DNA from: a virus
Taxonomy: Duplodnaviria > Caudoviricetes
DNA: 64,000 nucleotides
IMG/VR virus record: IMGVR_UViG_3300001580_000013
Location: 1-64,000 of that record
Direction: 5' to 3' (one strand)
This document shows, one piece after another, positions 22,561-58,200 of this stretch; the stretch's first letter is position 1, and the number at the start of each line of letters is the position of its first letter. Both the position numbers and the translations under genes were made by a program. The notes beneath the pieces are model-generated. The model saw only the letters and a list, made by a program, of their open reading frames with translations, was not told where the DNA came from and did not search any database.

Positions 22561-22589
22561 AATATAAGAAATAAAAATTAAAATGTCAA
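22561..22589 (-). promoter_or_regulatory. early promoter
   Basis: TTGACA-17-TATATT. Confidence 0.85.
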
Positions 22590-25457: not shown

Positions 25458-25486
25458 AATATAAGATATACAAATTAAAATGTCAA
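25458..25486 (-). promoter_or_regulatory. early promoter
   Basis: TTGACA-17-TATATT. Confidence 0.85.
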
Positions 25487-25504: not shown

Positions 25505-25512
25505 TATAAATA
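25505..25512 (+). promoter_or_regulatory. T4-type late promoter driving tnpB-1
   Basis: TATAAATA 7 nt before ATG, no SD. Confidence 0.75.
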
Positions 25513-25519
25513 TAAGTAT

Positions 25520-26728
25520 ATGATAAGAACGTCTAAACATATTCTCAAATTTGCCAACCAAAATAAATTAGATTTATTAGAACAAATTTATTTTGATTGT
25601 AAAAAGCAAATTGAAGTTTATATTGATCAAATTATATCGGCAAAGCTGGAATTAAGTAAGAGGATGAGCAGCAAATTGTTATCTAATGATTTCACAAAAA
25701 ACTCCGATTGGAAAAATTTATGTTATCAACAAGCTTCTTCCACCATCGGAAGTCAATACAAAAAAGCATCCAATAAAAGATTTAATTCTTACAAAAAGAT
25801 TTACACCAAACTAAAAGAACAAAATAGATATCAAAAATTTTTATCAAAGAAATTCTCTGAATTAAATTTAAAACCAATTCAACAAACAAAATATTTCACT
25901 AAACCAAAATTGAATAATGTAACTATAATTATTCCAAAAAATTTAATTAATTTCACTTCGGATTCTAAATCCTTTGATTCATTTATTAGATTAACTACAC
26001 CATATAAAAAATCCATTCATAGATATCAAACCATCAATATTCCAATAAAATATCATTTTCATTCCAATAAATTTAGAACTTCTGGGTGGAAGTTGAAAAA
26101 TTCTATTTCCTTGAACAAAGTTAATGATAACTTATACTTTGATTTATTTTGGGAGAAAGAGCAAGTTACAAAGAAAACAAAAGGAAAGCAAATAGGTTTA
26201 GATTGTGGTTATAAGAAGCTACTCATTTCATCAGAAAATAAAATATATGATTTGGGTATGAAGAAAATCTATAACAAACTATCCAGAAAGAAACAAGGAT
26301 CAAAGAATTTTAAGCAAGCATTAACTGAGAGAGATAATTTAATTAATCGAAGTATAAACAAGATAGAAATGGAAGAAATAAAAACAATTGTAGTTGAAGA
26401 TTTAAAGAATGTAAAGTTGGGAAGCAAATTTAGTAAAAAATTTAATAACAAGCTACAGAGATGGAGTTATCCAAAGGTTTTGGTGAAGCTATCTATGATT
26501 TGTGAGGAACAAGGAATAAACTTGGTTAGAGTTGATCCTGCTTATACAAGTCAAACATGTAGTAAATGTGGATTTAAAGATAAGAAAAACCGTTCTGGTG
26601 AACGGTTCTTGTGTTTGAGTTGCGGAATGACTATGGATGCTGATTATAATGCATCAATTAATATTTTGCATAGAGGCATATACAGTTCCTCTACCGAAAA
26701 TAATAAAGCTGATTTAAAGGTTAGCTGA
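25520..26728 (+). CDS. tnpB: RNA-guided endonuclease TnpB (copy 1)
   Basis: RuvC-I GLDCG, RuvC-II VVEDL, YTSQTCSKCG...CLSCG zinc finger, RuvC-III DADYNASINI; 402 aa. Confidence 0.93.
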   Translation: MIRTSKHILKFANQNKLDLLEQIYFDCKKQIEVYIDQIISAKLELSKRMSSKLLSNDFTKNSDWKNLCYQQASSTIGSQYKKASNKRFNSYKKIYTKLKEQNRYQKFLSKKFSELNLKPIQQTKYFTKPKLNNVTIIIPKNLINFTSDSKSFDSFIRLTTPYKKSIHRYQTINIPIKYHFHSNKFRTSGWKLKNSISLNKVNDNLYFDLFWEKEQVTKKTKGKQIGLDCGYKKLLISSENKIYDLGMKKIYNKLSRKKQGSKNFKQALTERDNLINRSINKIEMEEIKTIVVEDLKNVKLGSKFSKKFNNKLQRWSYPKVLVKLSMICEEQGINLVRVDPAYTSQTCSKCGFKDKKNRSGERFLCLSCGMTMDADYNASINILHRGIYSSSTENNKADLKVS

Positions 26729-26752
26729 CTGTAGAATACAAATTAATAGTAA
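26560..26752 (+). ncRNA. putative omegaRNA of tnpB-1 (5' end uncertain); guide ~26733-26752
   Basis: Hairpins TAGAGG/CCTCTA (26671-26693) and AGCTGATT/GGTTAGCT (26707-26726); identity with copy 2 ends at GACTGT (26732). Confidence 0.65.
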
Positions 26753-45522: not shown

Positions 45523-46587
45523 CTAATATATTTTAAATTCAAAATTGCGGCATGATAATATGCAAGCTTTTTCTTTTAGTAAATTTTTTTCTAAATCTCG
45601 TTTCATAGTCCATGTAGATTTAACTTCTACTATTTTATTTTCTTTTGGAATATAGAAATCTGGAAAATATTTATGTTTCTTCCCATCTTTAGTATAATAC
45701 CATATCTTTCCAATTATATCTTGAGTTGGATGAACAATTATATCTTCCTCTGATCCCTTATTATAGAAATATTCATCGAGATATATTCCTTCGTATCCTT
45801 GAATTTTAACTACCTTTCCAGATGGCATGATATAATCTTTCCATTTAAACGCTGATCTGGAACACTTATCAAATATTCCTTGATCTTGCATAGGGTTTTC
45901 TACCCCGTACTTCTCGATACATGTATTTTTAATTTTTTCTTTCATTTCATCATTTTGAAGGTGACACCGTGTACCGAAATTATCCATACATGTTTTTTTT
46001 GATTTTTCCTTATTTACTTCCGCTTGTAGGGGATTATCTGTTCCATAATGTTCTCTACAGGTATTTGTTTTCTTTTCTTTTATTTCTGCACTTTGAGAAA
46101 CATTATCAACACCATATTTTTCGCGAATAGTCTGTTGTTGTTTTTTATATATATCTTTATTTTGTAAAGGATTTTCAAAACCGTATCTCTTTAAATTTGT
46201 TTGTTTAACTTTTTCTCGCATTTCGTTGGATTGAGAAGAAAATTCTACACCATATTTATCCATACAAGTTTTTTTACTTTTTTCTCGCATTTCTTTGCTT
46301 TGCATAATATTTTCTACACCATATTTTTGCAAATTTGTTTCTTGCCGTGCTTTTACCTGACAGTCAACACTACCGCACGATTGACTATACCCATGTGCGA
46401 TATCAATAAACATTTTATCGTTTGAACAATATTTGCATTTTTTATCTGATACATTTTGTAAAATATAAGTGTCATAATATTGCTGTTTCGTTATTTCCGG
46501 ATGAGAATGAACAATATGATATGAAAAAGAAAAATTATTTTTACATTCTTTTCCACATATTTTACATATTATTTTATCTTGAACCAT
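45523..46587 (-). CDS. putative homing endonuclease (KYGVEN repeats + C-terminal PD-(D/E)XK)
   Basis: N-terminal Zn fingers, 7 x ~24-aa KYGV(E/D)N repeats, YFPDFYIPKENKIVEVKS. Confidence 0.75.
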   Translation of the reverse strand: MVQDKIICKICGKECKNNFSFSYHIVHSHPEITKQQYYDTYILQNVSDKKCKYCSNDKMFIDIAHGYSQSCGSVDCQVKARQETNLQKYGVENIMQSKEMREKSKKTCMDKYGVEFSSQSNEMREKVKQTNLKRYGFENPLQNKDIYKKQQQTIREKYGVDNVSQSAEIKEKKTNTCREHYGTDNPLQAEVNKEKSKKTCMDNFGTRCHLQNDEMKEKIKNTCIEKYGVENPMQDQGIFDKCSRSAFKWKDYIMPSGKVVKIQGYEGIYLDEYFYNKGSEEDIIVHPTQDIIGKIWYYTKDGKKHKYFPDFYIPKENKIVEVKSTWTMKRDLEKNLLKEKACILSCRNFEFKIY

Positions 46588-47266
46588 GCATTCTCTCTAT
46601 TATTGTGTTATATAGATTTATGTGTTTTGATCTATCTTTTGGACTTAATTTTTTAAATATTTTTGTAAATTCATCAAGTTCTTGTTCAGTCAAAAGTTTC
46701 TCTTTTATGACTGTATTTGCAGATTCATTTGTCATGTGATATACGATTGCATCAGGCGCACTCTGATCAAAAACTATATCAATTTCTGCTAAACTTAGAT
46801 CGTTATCAACTTTTTTATCTTTTTTAACTGTTCCTGTTGCTCTTGAACTGACCCCCCAAGAAAATCCCGCCTCAAACATTTCTTTAACCAACAGACCAAG
46901 ACCATAATTAACTATAACGGATTCGCCCATTATGTTTGTTCCGTCTGGCCACAATTTCTTAATTCTTGCCGCCGTTCTTTCGGGATTCAATATTAACTCA
47001 TCTGGATGGTTTAATTCCATGCCTGCTTTATTTTTATCTACTACTTCTCTGATATATCTTTGAGTTTCTGGAAGAAGAACATCATAAAATGGATAAATTC
47101 TTCCATTTCTGTTCTCAACGTCACCCTGCATATAAATTCCCGAAAAATTATAATCATTCTTCCCTGTACTTTCGTTCAAAACTTTTTTAACTATACAATT
47201 TGAATTACTATTTTCAATCAGTATTCCCTTTCCGGCGGTATGTGGTTTTAATATTCCTAAATTCAT
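46574..47266 (-). CDS. prohead core protease (T4 gp21-like)
   Basis: GIYMQGDVENRNGRIYP, ELNHP, GVSSRATG, DIVFDQSAPDA. Confidence 0.93.
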   Translation of the reverse strand: MNLGILKPHTAGKGILIENSNSNCIVKKVLNESTGKNDYNFSGIYMQGDVENRNGRIYPFYDVLLPETQRYIREVVDKNKAGMELNHPDELILNPERTAARIKKLWPDGTNIMGESVIVNYGLGLLVKEMFEAGFSWGVSSRATGTVKKDKKVDNDLSLAEIDIVFDQSAPDAIVYHMTNESANTVIKEKLLTEQELDEFTKIFKKLSPKDRSKHINLYNTIIERMHGSR

Positions 47267-47284
47267 AATTTAACCTTTTCTTAT

Positions 47285-47292
47285 TATTTATA
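47285..47292 (-). promoter_or_regulatory. T4-type late promoter
   Basis: TATAAATA 18 nt before protease ATG. Confidence 0.8.
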
Positions 47293-47296
47293 AAAT

Positions 47297-48355
47297 TTAC
47301 GAAAGATTTGCACCAGTATGACCTTTATCAGTTAAGAAAAATGCGTATGGGTCATTTCCAGTTGTTTTAGAACCAAGTCCTGCTACATATTTTGTTATTG
47401 TAGTTGTTCCAACTGCTATTATATATATATTATAACCCCCTATAACATCATAAGTTGAGAAGAAAATATCTCCTTCCAAATTAGTGTGCAAATTATAACA
47501 GTAATATAATGGTGTGGTCAAATCTTCTTTTGTTAGTGGTATGACTGTTATTACTGGTGTAGTCTCAATTGAAGTCATTTTGTATAATATATTTTGAGTA
47601 GTTCCATTTTGTTGATTAGATAATGCCCACAAGGTGTCATCTTTATCACAAATTAAATCTATTACATATCCTATATTTTCGGATATTACCATATTAGTAT
47701 TAGCAACTATTATATTATTATAAACATATCGTGACATTCTGGTTGTTGGCGCACCTCCACATAAACCATATCCATTACCAATTTGATTTACAGCAGTATA
47801 AATAATCCTATTATTACCATCAAACCCATAATTAACAACATTTTGAGTATCAGCATTTATTACACTACCATTTGTGGTCGAACTTGCCGCATTTCTCCCT
47901 ACCCACAAATTATTAAATTTATCAATTCTAAAATAATATGATGCTATCTGATTAGAAGCTACATAAAAATTACTTGCAGATAAGGTGAATGAAGATACAT
48001 TTATTTTGTATATTTTTGCGTTTGTTGCTGTTGTGAGTGTATTTATCATAATATATAAATTTCTTCCACCAACATCTAAACCATTATCTAAAGCTAAACC
48101 CTGAACTTCATAATCGGCAGGAGATAATCCCAAAGCAGTATTTACATTTATCTCGGTTCTGTTTCCGTCCACATCAATCTTTCCAATCAACGCGCCATAA
48201 GAATAATAAGTATTTCCATCTGTGTCGCAAACATTTCTCATTTCATAATAATTAACACGAGGAATACCACCAGTTGGGTCATTTATTGGGATTTGTTGTA
48301 AAACCTCTACATTTCCTTCTGGGTCTGTTCCAAGCTGTGTCATATAATATTTCAT
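47297..48355 (-). CDS. beta-propeller-like virion accessory protein
   Basis: Repeated D..GNxW/Y blades (DTDGNTYY, DKFNNLWVG, DKDDTLWAL, NLEGDIFF). Confidence 0.55.
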   Translation of the reverse strand: MKYYMTQLGTDPEGNVEVLQQIPINDPTGGIPRVNYYEMRNVCDTDGNTYYSYGALIGKIDVDGNRTEINVNTALGLSPADYEVQGLALDNGLDVGGRNLYIMINTLTTATNAKIYKINVSSFTLSASNFYVASNQIASYYFRIDKFNNLWVGRNAASSTTNGSVINADTQNVVNYGFDGNNRIIYTAVNQIGNGYGLCGGAPTTRMSRYVYNNIIVANTNMVISENIGYVIDLICDKDDTLWALSNQQNGTTQNILYKMTSIETTPVITVIPLTKEDLTTPLYYCYNLHTNLEGDIFFSTYDVIGGYNIYIIAVGTTTITKYVAGLGSKTTGNDPYAFFLTDKGHTGANLS

Positions 48356-48369
48356 ATCTTAAATCTCCT

Positions 48370-48891
48370 TTATTCTGGTATTCCGGGGTCATCCGTTCCA
48401 TTAGTTAATAATATCCAACCTCTATCCAATCCTGTAAATGTATTCTCTTCATAATTTTTGTTTGTGAGAATCCAGCATTCATTATCGTATGGAACATTTG
48501 AACCATAATAGAAATTTGTTAAAATCCAAGGATTGATTTCACTTCCCACTAAGCTAAAATAATCACTAAATCCAAATACTTCCGAATAATTCACCACACT
48601 TATTTTTATTTGATAATTACCACCCATAAGAGTTTTAAAAATTGTAGAATAAATTCCATTATTTGGTGTACTTTCGGCTATTGTAGAATAATAAACCCCG
48701 TCTTTATATAATTCAATCTTCACATTTGGAAAATAAAAATTATTAAAATATCCGCTGTTCCAAAGGATTATAACTGTGTATGGTTGTTCAAAACTTCCAC
48801 TGTTTGGAGAAATAACATGAATATATGGAGATTTTGACTTATATAATCTCGCATTTAATCGGTTAGATATTTCGTGTGTTAAATCCGTCAT
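48370..48891 (-). CDS. Ig-like (Kre9/Ser-Thr-rich GPI-anchored family) domain protein
   Basis: IHVISPNSG...IILWNS...VKIELYK...NNGIY...YQIKI...SDYFSL. Confidence 0.65.
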   Translation of the reverse strand: MTDLTHEISNRLNARLYKSKSPYIHVISPNSGSFEQPYTVIILWNSGYFNNFYFPNVKIELYKDGVYYSTIAESTPNNGIYSTIFKTLMGGNYQIKISVVNYSEVFGFSDYFSLVGSEINPWILTNFYYGSNVPYDNECWILTNKNYEENTFTGLDRGWILLTNGTDDPGIPE

Positions 48892-48896
48892 ACTTT

Positions 48897-48904
48897 TATT
48901 TATA
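48897..48904 (-). promoter_or_regulatory. T4-type late promoter, 5 nt before ATG
   Basis: TATAAATA-AAAGT-ATG. Confidence 0.75.
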
Positions 48905-48920
48905 TTTTTACTTAAATAAA

Positions 48921-48943
48921 AAATCCCGAATTATACGGGATTT
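48921..48943 (-). terminator. intrinsic terminator
   Basis: 8-bp stem AAATCCCG/CGGGATTT, 7-nt loop, U-tract on minus strand. Confidence 0.8.
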
Positions 48944-48961
48944 AAAATAAAAATTTTATTC

Positions 48962-49867
48962 CTAATTAACATCAACTTCTATATTCTTTTTAATTTTCTT
49001 CTCGATTCTCCTGAGTTCATCTAATCCATCCATTGATTTGATTGGTATTGGTTCTTTATTATTTGTCGTGCTCCACGCAGTTAAAATATCACTGGCGGTA
49101 TCTTGCATAAACAAAATTGAAAGATTAAAAAACCTGTTCACTTTATCATTAATGCTTCCACCGATCATGCTACGAACTTTTTCTATATATTCATCTAATC
49201 TTTTTTGTTTGAGTTCCATATATTTGTTACACACATCAACTGAAAATTCTGTTTGACATTTTGCATTCATTTTGAAACAATGGTTTTTTAAATTTTCTAC
49301 CGCCAAATTTAAATCTTCGCTACTGTTAAAAATATAGGTCATACTATCCATAACCCAATCACCAAACTCTCCGCATTGCTCCACAATGAAACAACGAAGT
49401 TTTTCATTTGAGAAAAATGGCAAAACATCACCAATTTTTAATCTGATAACTCCTCGATATTGTTTATTTCTTGCTTCTGAATCCTCTCCTTTCTTGAACA
49501 AGGCATATAGATCATCCAAACCTGTTTTTATTTCTGCAAAATTTTTATTTGTTATATCAAAATGTTTAGTGTGTTCTTTTAAAATTTCTTTGATATCATT
49601 ATGTTCTCTTATATTTTTTGATTCATATGTTCTTAGTTCATCTATAACAATTCTATCAAGTGTCACAATTGAATTTTTTTCATCTTGTTTGTCAGCATCA
49701 TCTACAATTTTTTTCTCGCTGAATACTTTTTCGAGTGCTGCTGTTACAATTTTTGAAGATTGCTTTTCTGCATCTCTTTCTCTTTTTTTGTTACCAGAAA
49801 AGTAAAAATAAGCAATTATTCCTAGTATTCCGGCTTCCACAAAGTACTTCCACATCACCAAATCCAT
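48962..49867 (-). CDS. single-TM late protein (holin/lysis-associated candidate)
   Basis: N-terminal TM then helical domain; own late promoter. Confidence 0.45.
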   Translation of the reverse strand: MDLVMWKYFVEAGILGIIAYFYFSGNKKRERDAEKQSSKIVTAALEKVFSEKKIVDDADKQDEKNSIVTLDRIVIDELRTYESKNIREHNDIKEILKEHTKHFDITNKNFAEIKTGLDDLYALFKKGEDSEARNKQYRGVIRLKIGDVLPFFSNEKLRCFIVEQCGEFGDWVMDSMTYIFNSSEDLNLAVENLKNHCFKMNAKCQTEFSVDVCNKYMELKQKRLDEYIEKVRSMIGGSINDKVNRFFNLSILFMQDTASDILTAWSTTNNKEPIPIKSMDGLDELRRIEKKIKKNIEVDVN

Positions 49868-49887
49868 TTTATAACCTTTTTTTCTTT

Positions 49888-49895
49888 TATTTATA
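49888..49895 (-). promoter_or_regulatory. T4-type late promoter
   Basis: TATAAATA 20 nt before 49867. Confidence 0.7.
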
Positions 49896-49914
49896 ACTTT
49901 TCTTTTTTATTTTT

Positions 49915-50184
49915 CTATTTTATTTCATCTACTTTTGCATTCTCTTCTGCCATTGGAAGTTTTTTAAACGCATTGTACGTGAGTGTGAGCATCCACGCAG
50001 CCATGAGTCCATCCGGAACTGTAAAATATTCTTTTATTATATCAGCATATTCTACTCCACCGATCCACAAAAATATAAACTTCCCCACCCAAAAATAAAT
50101 TAAAATGACAAGAAGAATCCAAAATGAAATTCTTCCCATAGAAATGTCTTTATTATTTTCTGAAATCAAACTCTTATAATTCAT
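49915..50184 (-). CDS. two-TM membrane protein, holin candidate
   Basis: SMGRISFWILLVILIYFW + second TM, charged C-terminus; ATG 50184. Confidence 0.55.
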   Translation of the reverse strand: MNYKSLISENNKDISMGRISFWILLVILIYFWVGKFIFLWIGGVEYADIIKEYFTVPDGLMAAWMLTLTYNAFKKLPMAEENAKVDEIK

Positions 50185-50360
50185 AGTCACAGTCAGCTAA
50201 CCTTTGAATTAGCTTTATTTTCAGTAGAGGAACTATAAATGCCTCTATGTAAAATGTTTATAGATGCATTGAAATCAGCATCCACAGTCCTTCCACAACT
50301 CAAACATAAAAACTTTTCTAACTTCCTATTGTCTTTGTGTTTGTGCCCACATTTGCTACA
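50169..50360 (-). ncRNA. putative omegaRNA of tnpB-2 (5' end uncertain); guide ~50188-50169
   Basis: Hairpins at 50225-50247 and 50195-50214 homologous to copy 1; shared end GACTGT (50194-50189). Confidence 0.65.
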
Positions 50361-51401
50361 TGTTTGACTTGTATAGGCTGGATCAACTTTTATAAAGTTT
50401 ATTCCATTCTCTTCACAAATCATAGATAGTTTATTCAAAACCTTTGGATAACTCCATCTCTGTAGCTTGTTGTTAAATTTCTTTGAAAACTTTGATTTTG
50501 ATTTTACATTCTTTAAATCTTCTACCACTATAATTTGTATATTTTCTGTTTCTATTTTATTGATAGATTGATTTATTAAATTATCTCTCTCAGTTAATGC
50601 TTGCTTAAAATTTTTGCTTCCTTGTTTCTTTCTTGATAGTTTTTGATATATTTTCTCCATACCCAAATCATATATTTTATTATCTGAACTTATTAATAAT
50701 TTCTTATAACCGCAATCTAAACCAATTGATTTACCGCTCAATTTCCTCACAAGTTCTTCTTTCTCCCACAGCAAATCAAAGTAAAAATTATTGTTAACTT
50801 TGTTCAACGATATAGAATTTTTTAATTTCCAACCAGATGTTCTAAATTTATTTGAATGAGAATGATATTTGATGGGGATGTTAATTGTTTGATAGTGATA
50901 ATTGTCTTTAGTGTGATATGGTGTAGTTAATCTAATAAATGAATCAAAGGATTTAGAATCTGTGGTGAAGTTAAACAATCTTTCGGGTAATATTATGGTT
51001 ACATTATTTAATTTTGGTTTGGTGAAATATTTTGTTTGTTGAATTGGATTTAATTTTAATTCCGAGAATTTCTTAGATGTAAATTTATTATGTCTATTCT
51101 GTTCTTTCATTTTAGCATAAATTCTTCCATAAGCTTTAAATCTTCTATTAGAAGCTTTCTTATACTGACTCCTTATAATTTCAGAAGCTTGTCCGTAACA
51201 CAACTGTCTCCAACGAGAGTCTGTAATAAAATCTGAAGATAATAATTTAGATGTCATATTCTTTTTTAATTCAAGTTTATCGGATACAATTTGATCAATA
51301 TAAACTTCAATTTGTTTCTTGCAATCAGAATAAATTTGTTCAAGCATATCTAATTTATTTTTGTTCGCGAATTTTAGTATGTGTTTACTTCTTCTTATCA
51401 T
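50193..51401 (-). CDS. tnpB: RNA-guided endonuclease TnpB (copy 2)
   Basis: GLDCG, VVEDL, CSKCG/CLSCG, DADFNASINI; start MIRRSKH at 51401 gives 402 aa like copy 1. Confidence 0.93.
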   Translation of the reverse strand: MIRRSKHILKFANKNKLDMLEQIYSDCKKQIEVYIDQIVSDKLELKKNMTSKLLSSDFITDSRWRQLCYGQASEIIRSQYKKASNRRFKAYGRIYAKMKEQNRHNKFTSKKFSELKLNPIQQTKYFTKPKLNNVTIILPERLFNFTTDSKSFDSFIRLTTPYHTKDNYHYQTINIPIKYHSHSNKFRTSGWKLKNSISLNKVNNNFYFDLLWEKEELVRKLSGKSIGLDCGYKKLLISSDNKIYDLGMEKIYQKLSRKKQGSKNFKQALTERDNLINQSINKIETENIQIIVVEDLKNVKSKSKFSKKFNNKLQRWSYPKVLNKLSMICEENGINFIKVDPAYTSQTCSKCGHKHKDNRKLEKFLCLSCGRTVDADFNASINILHRGIYSSSTENKANSKVS

Positions 51402-51406
51402 ATTTT

Positions 51407-51414
51407 TATTTATA
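51407..51414 (-). promoter_or_regulatory. T4-type late promoter driving tnpB-2
   Basis: TATAAATA-AAAAT-ATG. Confidence 0.75.
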
Positions 51415-51420
51415 AAATTT

Positions 51421-51708
51421 TTATATATGTGTATAAAATGATGTAATCCCATCGAACCATATCACCAATTTATACTTACAACCATTTCTTTTGTATTTTA
51501 CATATTCAGCTATCTTGACACTATTATTTATAATATTTCCAATTTCAAAATCAGAAAATTCAGAATCAACCAAAAATCCTTCTTTTTTATCTGCATATTC
51601 TATATCAATTCTTGTTATGTTTTCTAAAGAAAGTTTTACTCCCTTATCATACTTGTCAGAAGAAAGATCGTGTTGGAATGTTCGTGTATTTGTTTTTATT
51701 TTAATCAT
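51421..51708 (-). CDS. hypothetical protein
   Basis: ORF in minus-strand run. Confidence 0.6.
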   Translation of the reverse strand: MIKIKTNTRTFQHDLSSDKYDKGVKLSLENITRIDIEYADKKEGFLVDSEFSDFEIGNIINNSVKIAEYVKYKRNGCKYKLVIWFDGITSFYTHI

Positions 51709-51862
51709 ATTATTATTTCATTTTTTCTATATTCTATTTTCTTTTCTGGTTCTTTCTTAAAAATTCTCATAGTACCAATAACAATGGAACCAATCCAAAT
51801 TAGTAAGATGAAGGTTATTAGTACTCCTCGATATTCTGTAATTAAGTTTTCCATAATCTTAT

Positions 51863-52414
51863 TTATAAATTAACTCCAACGAAATATAATAAAGGTAAAA
51901 TTAAACTGTAATCATAAAACCTATCGCTGTAGGGATATGGTTTTCCAAACATCCAATAAGTAGTCATTGTTAACCTATGTTTAAAGCTGTTGAACATTGT
52001 ATAATTCATAACTCTTTTGTAAATCCAATTTCCGATTAGCCACCAAGCCGATAATAAAAAGAAATCCATTCCACCAATTAAAAACATAATAAACGGAATA
52101 GAAAATTCTAATCCCCGAAATGTGTGATAATCTATAATTATATTTTTAATTATTAAATTTGATTTATCATAAATTTTTCTATTTATCCATATATATACAG
52201 CAAACATAATGGTATAGAGCGATTGTACGATGAGTGAATATTGTAAGGTGATAAACGCAATCGACAATACAAAAAAATTGACTATATTAAACCACGAATT
52301 TTTTGATAATTTCCAGAATATAATATTCTCTTTTTTCCACTGCAAACCTTCACGAACTCCTGATGAGAAAAAGATTAATAATACTAATAGTGAATATATA
52401 TAATTTTGATTCAT
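51863..52414 (-). CDS. multi-pass membrane protein
   Basis: 4-5 hydrophobic segments. Confidence 0.6.
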   Translation of the reverse strand: MNQNYIYSLLVLLIFFSSGVREGLQWKKENIIFWKLSKNSWFNIVNFFVLSIAFITLQYSLIVQSLYTIMFAVYIWINRKIYDKSNLIIKNIIIDYHTFRGLEFSIPFIMFLIGGMDFFLLSAWWLIGNWIYKRVMNYTMFNSFKHRLTMTTYWMFGKPYPYSDRFYDYSLILPLLYFVGVNL

Positions 52415-53514
52415 TGTATCTCCTTTATTTTAATTCCGGGTTCCCAACCATCATTTAAATATTTCTCAAGTTCTGATTCATGTATTTGTGTTCTTTTTTG
52501 TAATTTATCGTTATGAACCCATTTAAACCCTTTGGTGGTTCCCACTAATTCTCCAGTTTTTAATCTTGGGTCATTTTCATCAACTTGTATATATTTTCTT
52601 GATATAGTATCAAACATATTCTTTTTCTTTGCCATTACACCAACTAATTCACCACTTATCCATCTTGGGTCATTTTTATCTACTTGAAATATATTTCCAT
52701 CTTTGTCTTTTGATTGAATTTTTCCTTTACAGATGTGTACCAGTTCTCCATTAGATATTCTCGGGTCATCTTTATCTACTTGAATGGTGTTGCCTTCTTT
52801 ATCTTTAACAACCGCCTTGCCTTTAAAACAACTAACCAACTCACCACTCAACCATCTCTCGTCTGTTTTATCAATTTGAAAGGTGTTGCCATCTTTATCC
52901 TTGACAGTTACTTTTCCCGTGGTCATGTGAACCAATTCCCCACTCGTATATCTGTTATCAGTTGTAGAAATTGAAAGAAATTTACCATTCTCATCTTTTA
53001 CAATAACTTTTTCTTTCGTTATAGATTCTAATTCTCCATCGGCTATTCTTGGGTCGTCTTTATCAACTTGAAAAGTATTTCCGTCTTTATCTCTGACAGC
53101 ACCCATTCCTTTAAAACAACTAACCAACTCACCACTCAAATATCGTTCATCGTGTATTGAAACTTGTGAAGTGTTACCATCTTTGTCTTTTACACTAACC
53201 ATTCCAATATTCTTATATCCAATATCTCCATTCCCACCAAGAGTCATATTATAAGTGTCATCTCTCCTAAGTAAATCTCTATTAATGAGTTCTTTTTCTT
53301 TTAATATCATTTCTTCTTGTGTATCAAACACAAATAATATTTCTTTTTTAAAATTTTCTTTTCCATATTTTTTAATTGCTCGTTTAATACCGATACCACT
53401 ACCCAAATATTTATCATCGACATTCTTTGTTTTGTGCATACCGATATAAAATTTACCATTAATAATATTAGTTATTTTATATATCGTGTAAAATATTTTC
53501 TTTTCTTCGTTCAT
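52411..53514 (-). CDS. GIY-YIG homing endonuclease (Seg-like) with seven 32-aa repeats
   Basis: YTIYKITNIINGKFYIGMH...YLGSG...F.KEIL...E...YN..LGG; repeats VKDKDGNTFQVDKDDPR..SGELV. Confidence 0.9.
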   Translation of the reverse strand: MNEEKKIFYTIYKITNIINGKFYIGMHKTKNVDDKYLGSGIGIKRAIKKYGKENFKKEILFVFDTQEEMILKEKELINRDLLRRDDTYNMTLGGNGDIGYKNIGMVSVKDKDGNTSQVSIHDERYLSGELVSCFKGMGAVRDKDGNTFQVDKDDPRIADGELESITKEKVIVKDENGKFLSISTTDNRYTSGELVHMTTGKVTVKDKDGNTFQIDKTDERWLSGELVSCFKGKAVVKDKEGNTIQVDKDDPRISNGELVHICKGKIQSKDKDGNIFQVDKNDPRWISGELVGVMAKKKNMFDTISRKYIQVDENDPRLKTGELVGTTKGFKWVHNDKLQKRTQIHESELEKYLNDGWEPGIKIKEIQ

Positions 53515-53519
53515 ATAAT

Positions 53520-53527
53520 TATTTATA
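53520..53527 (-). promoter_or_regulatory. T4-type late promoter, 5 nt before ATG
   Basis: TATAAATA-ATTAT-ATG. Confidence 0.75.
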
Positions 53528-53568
53528 AGAATATTGCTAAGATTGTTATAACCATTTGTTACTCCTTT

Positions 53569-54429
53569 TTATCTATTTAATACTCTATTTATTTCCAAAT
53601 CCATATAATCAATATAAAGTAAATCTATACTACTCGTTCCACTATTCCAACATTTTACTCCATGTCCAGTATAAGTTGTTGGTAAATTAGTAGTTATTGT
53701 TGCAGACCACAAAGGAGCAGAATTGATTGTTGAAGTTATTTCAAATAATATACTATTATAAGCAGAATTAACAGTTATAACCGCATTATACCAAGTGTTT
53801 GCAGTAAGATTTGATATAGTTCCTGCTCCTGCACTATTACTTGTGTTTGCTCCATTATAGGTATAAGCAGTTAAATTTGCTGTTCCACCTGCTGTTGATT
53901 TAACCCGTATAAGTGCTGATTGTGCTCCTATTGTTGCTGTCGTTGTATTTACAAATCCAAATAATAAAGTAGAATCTAAAGTATTCCCGGCATCTATAAA
54001 ACTTGCAGGAATTTTGAATATTGCTCTCGTTTTTTCTCCACCAGATAAAACAAATTGAGAAGTATTAGTTAAAACATAATAACCCGAATCTGCACCGGTA
54101 CCAGATTTTAGAGGAACTACACCAATATGATTAGCATCTGCCTGTCCGCTTATTCCTGTTGCTAAAGTACCGCCAGTTCCAATAGCTCCACCATACCAAT
54201 GGTCAAAATTGGCAGCATTTCCAAAGAAAAAATCATTTGCCCATTTCTGACTATCCATAACAACCCTCGAAGAATATTTTTGAGTAATATTATCAGTAGT
54301 TGCTAAAGTTCCTGTTATTGAGGTATTTCCTGCTCCTAAAGTTCCTATCACACCCAAATTACCTGTTACTGAAACATTTCCCGTAGTTGCTAAAGTTCCA
54401 ATTATTTCCGTATCTTTCAATTTTGCCAT
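53569..54429 (-). CDS. fibre/lectin-like virion protein
   Basis: N-terminal GTLATT/GNLGV fibre-shaft repeats; beta-sandwich C-terminus. Confidence 0.55.
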   Translation of the reverse strand: MAKLKDTEIIGTLATTGNVSVTGNLGVIGTLGAGNTSITGTLATTDNITQKYSSRVVMDSQKWANDFFFGNAANFDHWYGGAIGTGGTLATGISGQADANHIGVVPLKSGTGADSGYYVLTNTSQFVLSGGEKTRAIFKIPASFIDAGNTLDSTLLFGFVNTTTATIGAQSALIRVKSTAGGTANLTAYTYNGANTSNSAGAGTISNLTANTWYNAVITVNSAYNSILFEITSTINSAPLWSATITTNLPTTYTGHGVKCWNSGTSSIDLLYIDYMDLEINRVLNR

Positions 54430-54431
54430 CG

Positions 54432-55199
54432 TTATATCTCCAAAAATTCATTTTTTACTGTTACATCGTTTGTATTAATTCTCATATTTACATCTAAAGT
54501 GTCATCTTCTATAAATTCCTCACATCTAACAGTTCCGTCATTTCCCATTAGAAAGTTTGAGGGATAATTCCAAATTTCTGATACTTGCCAAAAACTTGTA
54601 AGAGTTCCATTTACTGTTAATTCAGTTCCTTTATTGCCTGTAATAGTTGAACCTGTTCCATTATTTATGTACCAAGTTTCATTGTTTATTTGAAAGGAGT
54701 ATATTTCATCAATCAAATAAGCGTTAGCACCATTTCTATTATATATCCACATAATGTCATTTGTGGTTACACTTCTCGTTACGGTTTGTGTATATACTTG
54801 AGAAAAAGTTTTTGATAGGTAAGAATATTCATAAAATATTATAATATAGTTCGCACCATCTTTCGTAGCACTCAATTTGTATATATTACCCGTTGTTATG
54901 TAAGGTGTTAAATTTATTTCAGTGTACTGATTACCTATTGCCATATATAAACCGTTATTATATTTGAACAAATGGTATCTGCTTGTACCACCACCAAAAA
55001 CACCATAATATACTTGAGTTGTAGTAGCATAAATGTATTTAAAAACAATCTCGCTGAAATTTACTTCATTAGCAGGAATCCCAGTATTAATATAAACATT
55101 TGTTCCATTCCCCTTTCCAGCATAAGAAATTTCATTGATTTCCATTCCACCAATTGCTGATAAATCTCCAGTATTCGTCAGTTGATAAGTCTTGCTCAA
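54432..55199 (-). CDS. ConA/LamG-like virion protein
   Basis: GNGTNVYINTG...IYSFQI pattern typical of phage lectin modules. Confidence 0.55.
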   Translation of the reverse strand: MSKTYQLTNTGDLSAIGGMEINEISYAGKGNGTNVYINTGIPANEVNFSEIVFKYIYATTTQVYYGVFGGGTSRYHLFKYNNGLYMAIGNQYTEINLTPYITTGNIYKLSATKDGANYIIIFYEYSYLSKTFSQVYTQTVTRSVTTNDIMWIYNRNGANAYLIDEIYSFQINNETWYINNGTGSTITGNKGTELTVNGTLTSFWQVSEIWNYPSNFLMGNDGTVRCEEFIEDDTLDVNMRINTNDVTVKNEFLEI

Positions 55200-55220
55200 A
55201 AATTCCTCACTCTTTTTCTT

Positions 55221-55228
55221 TATTTATA
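55221..55228 (-). promoter_or_regulatory. T4-type late promoter
   Basis: TATAAATA 21 nt before 55199. Confidence 0.7.
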
Positions 55229-55229
55229 A

Positions 55230-58200
55230 CTAATTGATAATAAAATCAATACTATTACTAACCGAATTAAATTTCATAACAGCATTTGTACCCATTCTAA
55301 ATTCTGTTGCTTCTATATCACCAGTTGTTTCAATATCAGAAGTTCCTGCATCTATCGTTCCTGCTACTGCATTTATTATTTTATCTCCACTTTCTAATGT
55401 AATATCGCCAACTACAGTTAAATCAGAAGTAGTCCGTACTATACCAGCACCTTTAGGAACTAATTCAATATCATAATCTGTTCCAATTCCTTTGGCTTTC
55501 CACTGATTTTTCAGAGTATCTTGGTCTTCTTCAAAATGTTCAAATAACCTATCCAATGTAATATTCACAGCAGGATAATCTAACTGAGAATTGTAAGTTC
55601 CACCACCGTGTATTAGAACATTTTGAGTTGTTAATGGTGAACCACTTCTTTTTGCTTTTACTCTTATTGCTAATTTATCTCCAGCAACAAAAGTATGTTG
55701 AACATCCGCAGTCACAACGAAAGTATAAGCCTCAATATTAGTTGCAAGTGGAGCTACTATTTCTGCTGATGAATAAGTATGTAATATTGTTCCTACACTA
55801 TCCAAAACTAATAAATCAACTTGGAATGTTACTCCTCTATTTGCAGTTGTTTTTTGCAAGTAAAGATAAGATTCAAATCTATCACCAATTTCAATAGAAG
55901 TCCTGTAATTCATAGCATCTTCAAATTCAATCCAAGTTTCTAACTCTGTTTGAGTATCCTGTGAAACTGAATAAGTATTAGAAAATGATGCTTGTGCTGT
56001 CAAACTTAATAATTTATTTATTCCACTATCTGTATTTGTTAAATATGCAATTCTGTCTTGGTAAACACTTAGAGCGTTTTTTAATCTTTGCTCTGTTATA
56101 TATTCAGCATTTCTATATGAAGTGGCTGTTGAAACTCTTTCGGCTTCCCACATTTTAGTTACGCCATCACCTTCAACTTGGAAAGCGGGTCTTAAATCAT
56201 TATGGGCAGAATAAACAGCCAATCTCGTATTAGTATGACGACAAATTGAACTCAACTCAGCAGGAGTAGAATAAGCGGTAACAGGAATTAATCTTAGCCA
56301 ATAACCTTCTGTGCCATCAATAGTCTTTTTAGCCCAATCCACAAATTCTGTATTATCCCATATTATATCACCATTTGCTGTAAGGTTTGTTGTTGAATCT
56401 ATAGCATTTGGAACATCAACCCAAGCATCAGAACTATTCAAATATTGAACTTTAAAAGTACCACCAACGCCATATTGTGATAATATAACATTGACAGCAC
56501 TCCATTTTGAAGCATTTCCAAGATAAAGATAATGGTCGGTATCTCCTAATATTTCAAAACTATCAGCTATACTACATTGAGTTGTTGCTGATTTGTAAGT
56601 ATAATCTATAAAAGTTGAACCAGCATCCTCAGAAACCATGACTCTGTGTATCATAGGAGGTTTGATATCCATTGTACTTGGTGGGTCTTGTGAGAATCCT
56701 CTTACAGACCAAGTATCCGTTAAACTATGACCAGTTGTTGCTCCAAAAGTTATATAAACACCTTCTCTTAATTCATAAGGAGTAATTTGACAAGGAATAA
56801 GAGTTCCACCAGAAGTCCAAGTTGAACCTGTTCCGCCAGCATTGATTAAATATTCCCATCTGAAAGTATCGGGTGTTCCTACACTATCAATATAAATTCT
56901 GAAAGCTGTTGTTGTATTTCCTTCAAAATTTCCACTTGCAGTTACATCATTTAATCCTGTTCCATTATAAGCTACATAAGGACTTACTAAACTTATTGGT
57001 CTATTAAATCCAAATCTACCATTTCTACTTATTACTAAAGGATTTTCTTGGCTATCTAAATTGTAAAAATACATAAATCGAGCATCTTCGTTTCTCCAAG
57101 CACCTTGAATAGCCCATTTATCTACACCATTGTCCTTGAACACAATTTGTTTATCAGTATCAACTGCACCATCAAGGAATAAACCATTTTCTTGTAAATT
57201 ATCACCACCCAAATCAGTGTCATCTGTCGCGTTTATAGTTACATCACCTATGAAATTATGAGTTGTTTTTACTATAACACCAGCTTTATCCACATAATAA
57301 CCATAATCGAGTGAATTTATTGTTGGATTCTTTCCACTTAAAGTAGCAGATATAACATTAACACTATTCATTGATATTTTACTATTTGTTGTTTCTAAAT
57401 CCGCAAATAAAGAAATAGAACCATTTGAATTGAATTGAATATTAATATCTTTGTCAGTACTACTAATAAAAAGTTGGTTGTCTTGGAACGGGTCTAAGTA
57501 TATTTCGTTATACATAGTTCCGCTACCATAAAGATACGCATCCCACAGGCTTATACCACCAACAGATTCAATATATTTTGGTGTTGGTAATGCACCTTCT
57601 TCTCCAATAAATATATTTCCTTTTAAATGAGCAGAATAATAGTCATCAAATCCCAATATACTATCATTTACAATAAGACCGTTTGAAGTTATTTTTTTAT
57701 CTGTTTCAACGTTTCCATCTCTATCAATGCTAACTAAGCTATCATATCCTTTTATAGCAAAAGTATATTCAGTAGAAACCTCATAAGCACTATAACCCGC
57801 AGGAATCGCTTGGTCAACTAATGGAGTTTCTAAAATATCCCAACCCTCTGACAAATGTTTATGAATGTATAATCTATGTTCGTCATATATACCTGTAAAA
57901 TATTCGAGATAAGACTCACAATTATCATTCGGATTTTCTTGGTTTATTGCATCTTTGGTAACCACTCTTAATTTTTCTATCTGTGAATATTGATAACCTT
58001 CCATAGAAGTTGAGTGTAAAATATGGATAGATACTCCAGATTTATTTCCTATATCAGAAGTAACCGTAAATATTAAACTTCCATTCTGTCTGCAATAACC
58101 GTCTGGAGGAGCTGGAATAGTATTCAGCCAATCACCACCATACCGTATTTCAAACATTGCGTGAGAAGTGCTTGAACTATTAGGACAAGTTGCTATACGA

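Follow-up and report, generated by a model that had tools for sequence, protein, structure and literature searches.

The DNA analysed here, called the window throughout, is the whole 64,000-nt stretch at positions 1 to 64,000 of IMG/VR record IMGVR_UViG_3300001580_000013. On its minus strand, positions 50189-51401 form a minimal TnpB-omegaRNA cassette of 1,213 bp, which has no transposase gene and consists of the tnpB open reading frame (ORF) alone. RNA-guided homing between co-infecting phages is the best explanation for this cassette, with a probability of about 0.6. The tnpB ORF begins 5 nt after a T4-type late box, TATAAATA, and would be expressed as a late, leaderless message. The last ~200 nt of the ORF would double as the RNA scaffold, whose end lies 4 nt beyond the stop codon, and the flanking DNA would supply the guide. 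When two related phages infect one cell, the TnpB-omegaRNA complex made late in infection would cleave the cassette-free allele where the downstream gene begins, and recombinational repair of the cut allele would copy the cassette in. The filled allele would be protected because the right end of the cassette, and not a transposon-associated motif (TAM), precedes the target.

A TnpB cassette reduced to one reading frame

An original prediction, made from the window sequence, had described an intact 402-aa TnpB with a box-N5-ATG start, diverged from a first copy on the opposite strand (copy 1); both its coordinates and its features are confirmed (Table 1). At the sequence level, the encoded protein has the RuvC triad, the Zn-finger/TNB region and the family profile match of a guided TnpB nuclease. 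It matches the Pfam family Cas12f1-like_TNB (PF07282; E=1.6e-21) and the NCBIfam hidden Markov model guided_TnpB (NF040570), the latter with 113.4 bits against a curated cut-off of 100. It also matches a PHROG family named "transposase", and PDB chains of Cas12f and TnpB align with it locally across the ExL and DxDxNAS motifs. Residues D229, E294 and D376 and the four Zn-finger cysteines are invariant in an alignment of six copies, and the protein shares 80% identity with that of copy 1. No TnpB relative was found in a bacterial genome collection with the patterns used, and an Rfam search gave no match.

The IMG/VR record that contains the window (G000) is 87.7 kb long and carries four tnpB copies. 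Two more are located in a 75-kb record (G001), and the two records together amount to 163 kb. A 128-kb ENA contig (k141_1430095) carries copy 1 in its exact context and, according to its listed proteins, both copies of G001. A 71-kb ENA contig (k141_455534), which matches 7.3 kb of the window at 100% identity, contains a seventh copy behind a tail sheath gene. Because these two contigs join G000 and G001, all of this sequence probably belongs to one T4-like phage of ~190 kb with seven tnpB copies, at least four of them in one record, which would occupy ~4-5% of the genome. The same phage is also present in sequencing runs from a second study (2025). All seven copies are open frames. Pairwise ratios of nonsynonymous to synonymous divergence (dN/dS) between copies are 0.12-0.17 at a dS of 0.7-1.2, and the copies therefore appear to be old and under purifying selection. 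Their alignment is mosaic, which suggests exchange or recombination between copies. Two of them, at loci L002 and L016, were considered as orthologous insertions in two phages; this was dropped, as they are more likely to be paralogous blocks of one genome.

The last 9 nt of the cassette (...GCTGACTGT) are common to the seven copies and end 4 nt past the stop codon, with complete divergence from the next base. Six aligned copies are identical over the last 17 nt despite a dS of ~1, the seventh keeps the last 13 nt, and loose contig ends derived from other copies begin at the same boundary base, 50189. This right boundary is common to all copies and therefore places the guide at 50188-50169, an independent confirmation of the guide first proposed from the window alone. 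The guide of any TnpB is its right flank. The earlier description of the downstream gene as "its own guide" is accurate in that the guide overlaps the gene start, which is nonetheless an ordinary consequence of any TnpB insertion. Within the 163 kb, the guide has a single match at ≤3 mismatches, namely its own flank, which is preceded by the cassette end and not by a TAM. The right-end 16-mer gave 86 metagenome and 8 viral matches; tnpB lies upstream only in the copies of this phage, and the rest were set aside as chance matches.

A consensus fold of six copies comprises 54 pairs, four of them with compensatory changes, and ends in two terminal hairpins. The single-sequence fold of the scaffold region has a z-score of -2.75, the lowest dS in tnpB is that of the last 77 codons, and in hairpin 2 an A-to-G change in copy 1 preserves the pair as G-U. 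Such a predicted fold is as expected of a TnpB omegaRNA with its entire scaffold contained in the coding region. Hairpin 1, the penultimate one, was also compared by eye in phage TnpBs from IMG/VR that are 44-45% identical (L113-L116). It has different stems there and a similar loop, and by this reading it is additional covariation support for a scaffold RNA. A contig from one sample (L132) carries a G-to-T change equivalent to window position 50222, which turns tnpB codon E394 into a stop and removes the last 9 residues. The change lies ~35 nt 5′ of the downstream ATG, in the unpaired stretch between the scaffold hairpins and just past hairpin 1.

Searches of the 163 kb detected no Y1 transposase (PF01797) and no serine recombinase/resolvase (PF00239). 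The first 136 nt of the cassette contain no hairpin and fold no better than shuffled sequences (z = +0.76), and no terminal inverted repeats are present in the cassette. The left edge of the cassette lies within ~5 nt of the ATG. Neither TnpA nor a left-end hairpin, the hallmarks of autonomous IS200/IS605 and IS607 transposons, is present in the sequence searched.

Table 1. Features of the cassette and its surroundings (window positions unless a record or locus is named)
Feature	Position	Strand	Remarks
T4-type late box TATAAATA	51414-51407	-	5 nt 5′ of the tnpB ATG
Spacer AAAAT, 5 nt	51406-51402	-	Between late box and tnpB ATG
tnpB coding sequence, 402 aa plus TGA	50193-51401	-	ATG at 51401; TGA at 50195-50193
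RuvC codon D229	50717-50715	-	
RuvC codon E294	50522-50520	-	
RuvC codon D376	50276-50274	-	
Zn-finger cysteines of TnpB, C348, C351, C366, C369			Two CxxC pairs
Predicted omegaRNA scaffold	50189-50400	-	Within last ~200 nt of tnpB ORF; 5′ end approximate
Scaffold hairpin 1, 6-bp stem	50225-50247	-	Consensus fold
Scaffold hairpin 2, 8-bp stem	50195-50214	-	Consensus fold; includes the TGA stop codon
Terminal 6 nt of the cassette, GACTGT	50189-50194	-	Right boundary between 50189 and 50188
Predicted 20-nt guide/target	50188-50169	-	4 nt plus 16 nt from the start of the downstream gene
Downstream membrane-protein gene, 89 aa	49915-50184	-	ATG 8 nt past the tnpB stop; no purine-rich Shine-Dalgarno sequence
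ORF95, orphan gene	51421-51708	-	Directly upstream; stop codon 6 nt before the late box
ORF49, small membrane peptide	51705-51867	-	Own TATAAATA-N5-ATG, start at 51854
Seg-like GIY-YIG gene, 367 aa	52411-53514	-	TATAAATA-N5-ATG; 1 kb from the cassette
Copy 1 cassette	25505-26732	+	Box, 7-nt spacer, tnpB at 25520-26728, same right end
68-70-aa gene	L002:1298-1501 (G000 72321-72527); G001 53840-54052		Own late box; gene plus tnpB block duplicated

The downstream gene and its cassette-free alleles

The ORF downstream of the cassette starts at the ATG at 50184, as do its homologues, and its first 25 residues are almost invariant. Such a conserved N-terminus would make a good homing target. The gene had been called a two-TM, holin-like gene without a clear Shine-Dalgarno (SD) sequence. 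The last point is borne out, in that no purine-rich SD is present. The protein has one strong hydrophobic segment (~residues 17-43, 27 residues), and the second is only weak (Kyte-Doolittle ~0.9). It has no Pfam or PHROG match, and its atlas neighbours are unnamed viral proteins. The neighbouring ORF95 and ORF301 have no Pfam or PHROG match, and ORF173 has no PHROG match. With no holin family match for the protein and no family match among the neighbours scanned, the holin-like label is unsupported. Termination-reinitiation coupling would be the likeliest way for the downstream gene still to be translated, as the tnpB stop codon is only 8 nt from the downstream ATG.

Homologues of the downstream protein, 57-79% identical, occur in four distinct cassette-free contexts (loci L006-L012). 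In L008 and L010-12 the gene begins 3 nt after the upstream ORF, in L007 it overlaps the upstream ORF, and in L006 a gap of 135 nt follows the called upstream gene. All four cassette-free alleles have an SD-like stretch 7-13 nt before the ATG, and in L010-12 a late box lies 20 nt upstream of the ATG. The insertion would have displaced the SD of the downstream gene, since the cassette end sits where the relatives have theirs. Locus L007 is syntenic on both sides, and there the gene start is overlapped by the gene for a small ORF49-like membrane peptide, which has an N5 box of its own. Between the same two conserved flanks, the window contains the GIY-YIG gene, ORF183, ORF49, ORF95 and tnpB. The tnpB gene is thus present or absent among related phages at a conserved locus, as is the case for free-standing homing endonuclease genes.

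The original prediction also held that the cassette had captured an existing late promoter, and that cassette-free alleles would carry TATAAATA-N4/5-ATG. None of the four alleles has this arrangement, an outcome that the prediction itself had named as refuting. This argues only weakly against promoter capture, because the empty alleles are 57-79% identical and not near-identical. The idea has support at three other tnpB loci, L003, L004 and L005, where the box belongs to a native promoter module (see below), and it finds no such backing at the downstream-gene locus, whose empty alleles lack box-N4/5-ATG.

Closer empty alleles were sought by several routes. The exact 20-mer target has no match in IMG/VR, and IMG/VR searches with ORF301 and the downstream gene gave nothing; G001 lacks both genes. 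The only database match of ORF95 is ORF95 itself, so that no closer empty allele could be reached through it. Among contigs aligned over 46000-56000, no joint skipping the cassette was seen, only loose ends from other copies. Relatives of the sheath gene at the locus of the seventh copy were tried as empty alleles and proved too diverged.

Several of these results weigh against homing. No near-identical cassette-free allele was found, and the five contigs with an identical downstream protein are all filled. The sampled empty alleles mismatch the guide at 3-6 of 20 positions, including TAM-proximal ones. With a dS of ~1, the copies carry no sign of recent spread. The left flanks have no consistent TAM motif beyond an AT-rich promoter context; ATAA precedes the ATG by 0 or 4 nt in the first six copies aligned, where the box and stop codons are confounders. 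Finally, the 163 kb searched are an incomplete genome, probably of ~190 kb, and a transposase could be encoded elsewhere or supplied by the host.

The late box, the left end and rival explanations

The sequence TATAAATA is not over-represented in the whole window (18 found, 16.9 expected), and it is its position that carries the meaning. Boxes at N18-22, together with an SD, head the genes for the prohead protease, portal, tail tube and baseplate wedge, and the box is therefore taken as a late promoter in the T4 sense. For comparison, 33 boxes within 45 nt of the start of an ORF other than tnpB were collected from the 163 kb. The spacing from box to ATG is bimodal, either N14-42 with an SD or N5-6 without one. 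The N5 class comprises four tnpB copies, the Seg-like GIY-YIG gene (53514), ORF49 (51854), ORF173 (48891) and two small ORFs of G001, in agreement with the earlier observation that other genes here share the box-N5-ATG geometry. The late box of T4 is positioned roughly one helical turn 5′ of the transcription start (PMC2988020). At this distance, N5 would place the ATG at or beside +1, and tnpB is probably expressed late from a leaderless message.

A box lies at N5-7 of the tnpB ATG in eight of ten copies, which represent nine distinct contexts, as two copies share an upstream block. Relatives that are 66-69% identical are included among the box-bearing copies; in copies of 83%, 69%, 69% and 69% identity the box stands at N5, N5, N6 and N7, respectively. 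A 57% identical relative has a sigma70-type promoter and an SD instead of the late box. In five copies the spacer reads AA[A/G/T]AT. The sequence AAAATTT to the left of both window copies had been singled out in the original prediction. It is indeed shared, yet it belongs to the general context of late boxes in this phage: of the 33 boxes away from tnpB, 19 are preceded by TTT and 29 are followed by A, and the full AAAATTT occurs at three. A 15-mer is common to both window copies because of this general promoter context and is not cassette-specific.

At L003, L004 and L005, the ~65 nt upstream of the tnpB ATG were considered as a shared left end. This was ruled out, as the motif recurs at ≥8 tnpB-free sites and, read on the opposite strand, is a TTGACA-N17-TATATT promoter for a divergent gene. 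In three tnpB-free modules, TATAAATA lies 12, 12 and 11 nt from the motif and drives ordinary SD-bearing genes; the box and this conserved early-promoter motif are likewise 12 nt apart at L003, L004 and L005. Since the tnpB-free modules share the spacing, the box at these three loci would be native and the cassette would begin within 5-7 nt of the ATG.

The promoter module itself, ~60-75 nt long, occurs at window positions 1331, 6858, 22581, 25478 and 37999 (+), at G000 66718(-) and at five sites in G001. Its TTGACA-N17-TATATT promoter is of the sigma70 type and presumably early, with the late TATAAATA on the other strand, 11-12 nt away, in six modules. The repeated module may be a portable regulatory cassette or a source of recombination homology.

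In the copies at L002 and L016, similarity to the others begins at the ATG. They have no late box at the ATG, which directly follows the stop codon of a 68-70-aa gene (Table 1). This small gene was considered as the DNA-binding remnant of an IS607 TnpA, which was not confirmed: it has no Pfam or NCBIfam match, and a PDB sequence search returned coiled-coil noise. The only hint at the sequence level is a weak match to a PHROG "transposase" (E=0.036). Its AlphaFold2 model (mean predicted local distance difference test score 89.5) has a winged-helix-like head and a long helix, with generic winged-helix matches at E ≥0.18. The gene may encode a regulator or a transposase DNA-binding remnant.

Several rival explanations bear on how the late box and the cassette came together. 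A possible one, which we hold tentatively, is that the box travels with the cassette, a minimal late promoter of ~15-20 nt and the ORF moving as a unit, with the box perhaps serving as left homology for ectopic recombination; in the homology version, a "native" and a "carried" box are the same thing. The homogeneous spacer, AA[A/G/T]AT down to 69% protein identity, speaks for such a unit, as the spacers of the other N5 genes vary, and so does the lack of the box in the empty alleles. Repeated promoter modules stand beside several copies, including the block of tnpB and the small helix-turn-helix gene, and the mosaic copies point in the same direction by suggesting recombination between them. 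Upstream of the box, however, no sharp common left boundary is seen, and the sequences drift apart just as they do at other late promoters of this phage. That the tnpB-free modules have the identical 12-nt spacing argues for native boxes, and the right-hand junction has no demonstrated mechanism under this explanation.

The model of the original prediction is rather unlikely. In it, each landing site has a late box of its own that includes or adjoins the TAM, and the cassette would have been inserted precisely between the leaderless promoter of the downstream gene and its ATG, so that late expression would come with every landing site. The spacing at L003, L004 and L005, equal to that of the tnpB-free modules, agrees with a native box, as does the N5-7 box of eight in ten copies in upstream DNA that is otherwise unrelated, and one empty allele (L010-12) does have a box 20 nt before the gene. 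Against this, the four empty alleles have an SD and no TATAAATA-N4/5-ATG, and three of the four abut or overlap the upstream ORF. There is no box at the ATG in L002 and L016, and the module at 22581 lacks a box that its tnpB-bearing paralogue at 25478 has. Precise TAM-adjacent insertion, moreover, normally needs TnpA and a left-end hairpin, neither of which was found.

A more specific proposal is that this TnpB lineage is a pure RNA-guided homing family of T4-like phages, with the late box itself as TAM and landing pad (or as portable left homology), so that each insertion would gain leaderless late expression together with a guide from its new right flank; in this specific form we consider it doubtful. 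That the copies are decaying or inert relics of host insertion sequences is highly improbable: the lack of a transposase or left end and the age of the copies would suit relics, but seven open frames with invariant catalytic residues, the low dN/dS (0.12-0.17), the identity of the last 17 nt of the scaffold in six copies at a dS of ~1, the conserved promoter geometry and the lack of a relative in the bacterial genome collection with the patterns used all point the other way.

Relation to known systems and neighbouring elements

The known role of TnpB in cells is that of a helper to IS200/IS605 transposons. A homing role for TnpB of this family was shown by Meers et al. (PMC10055086). Like the IS200/IS605 TnpB of ISDra2 (PDB 8EXA/8H1J), to which it has weak sequence similarity (E=4e-6), the cassette TnpB combines RuvC with a Zn finger, and its scaffold overlaps the 3′-end of tnpB; its guide is likewise the DNA beyond the right end, so that its target would be the empty site. 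Unlike IS200/IS605 elements, the cassette has no TnpA, left end or hairpin, with ≤5 nt between the late box and the ATG, and it resides in a lytic T4-like phage in 4-7 old, diverged copies. The partner allele would be that of a co-infecting phage and not of a sister chromosome.

Free-standing Seg and Mob homing endonuclease genes occur in T-even phages (Edgell, Gibb and Belfort 2010, as cited in PMC13565253). Like them, tnpB is a selfish nuclease gene between conserved phage genes that is present or absent among relatives, and the neighbouring Seg-like GIY-YIG gene has the same TATAAATA-N5-ATG as tnpB. Unlike in Seg and Mob, the target of TnpB would be set by an RNA read from the flank and not by the protein, and whether an allele carries the cassette would distinguish self from non-self. 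"Transposon non-restorative homing", which is driven by TnpB and independent of TnpA, has been documented in a plasmid population and only proposed for phages (PMC13565253, section 6.1). The process proposed here, by analogy with TnpB-driven spread of this kind and with the Seg and Mob genes, is similar in that TnpB without TnpA would bring the element into the empty orthologous site of a second replicon, and differs in that the phage elements have lost all but tnpB and the omegaRNA. TldRs, the nuclease-dead TnpB-like repressors (PMC10705468), resemble the cassette as TnpB relatives with a fixed guide and an adjacent promoter; in the cassette TnpB, by contrast, all three RuvC residues are intact, and the guide is in the mRNA sense and matches a gene start, not an operator.

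Among the papers searched, none was found on late-promoter, transposase-less TnpB families in T4-like phages, and a 2026 review lists homing into co-infecting phages as a theoretical type only (PMC13565253). What the window presents is a TnpB stripped to its ORF and scaffold, multiplied to several old but intact copies in the genome of a lytic phage and tied to late expression by the same box-ATG geometry as a GIY-YIG endonuclease gene. Should they home between co-infecting phages, such cassettes would be natural RNA-guided equivalents of Seg and Mob that reprogramme themselves, and they would drive phage mosaicism. Nucleases of this family are also compact, at ~400 aa, and have the whole scaffold within the ORF.

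The surroundings of the cassette are dense in selfish nucleases, with two protein-guided homing endonuclease genes flanking the region. One is the GIY-YIG gene, which was the sole match in a blastn search against a phage GenBank collection. A 354-aa gene with a PHROG "homing endonuclease" match lies at 45523-46587 (-), right after the prohead protease gene. In G001, a 217-aa ORF (L107:12349-12999) with TATAAATA-N6-ATG matches TIGR01765, the N-terminal domain of TnpB, weakly (E=0.004) and may be a truncated TnpB-like gene from another lineage.

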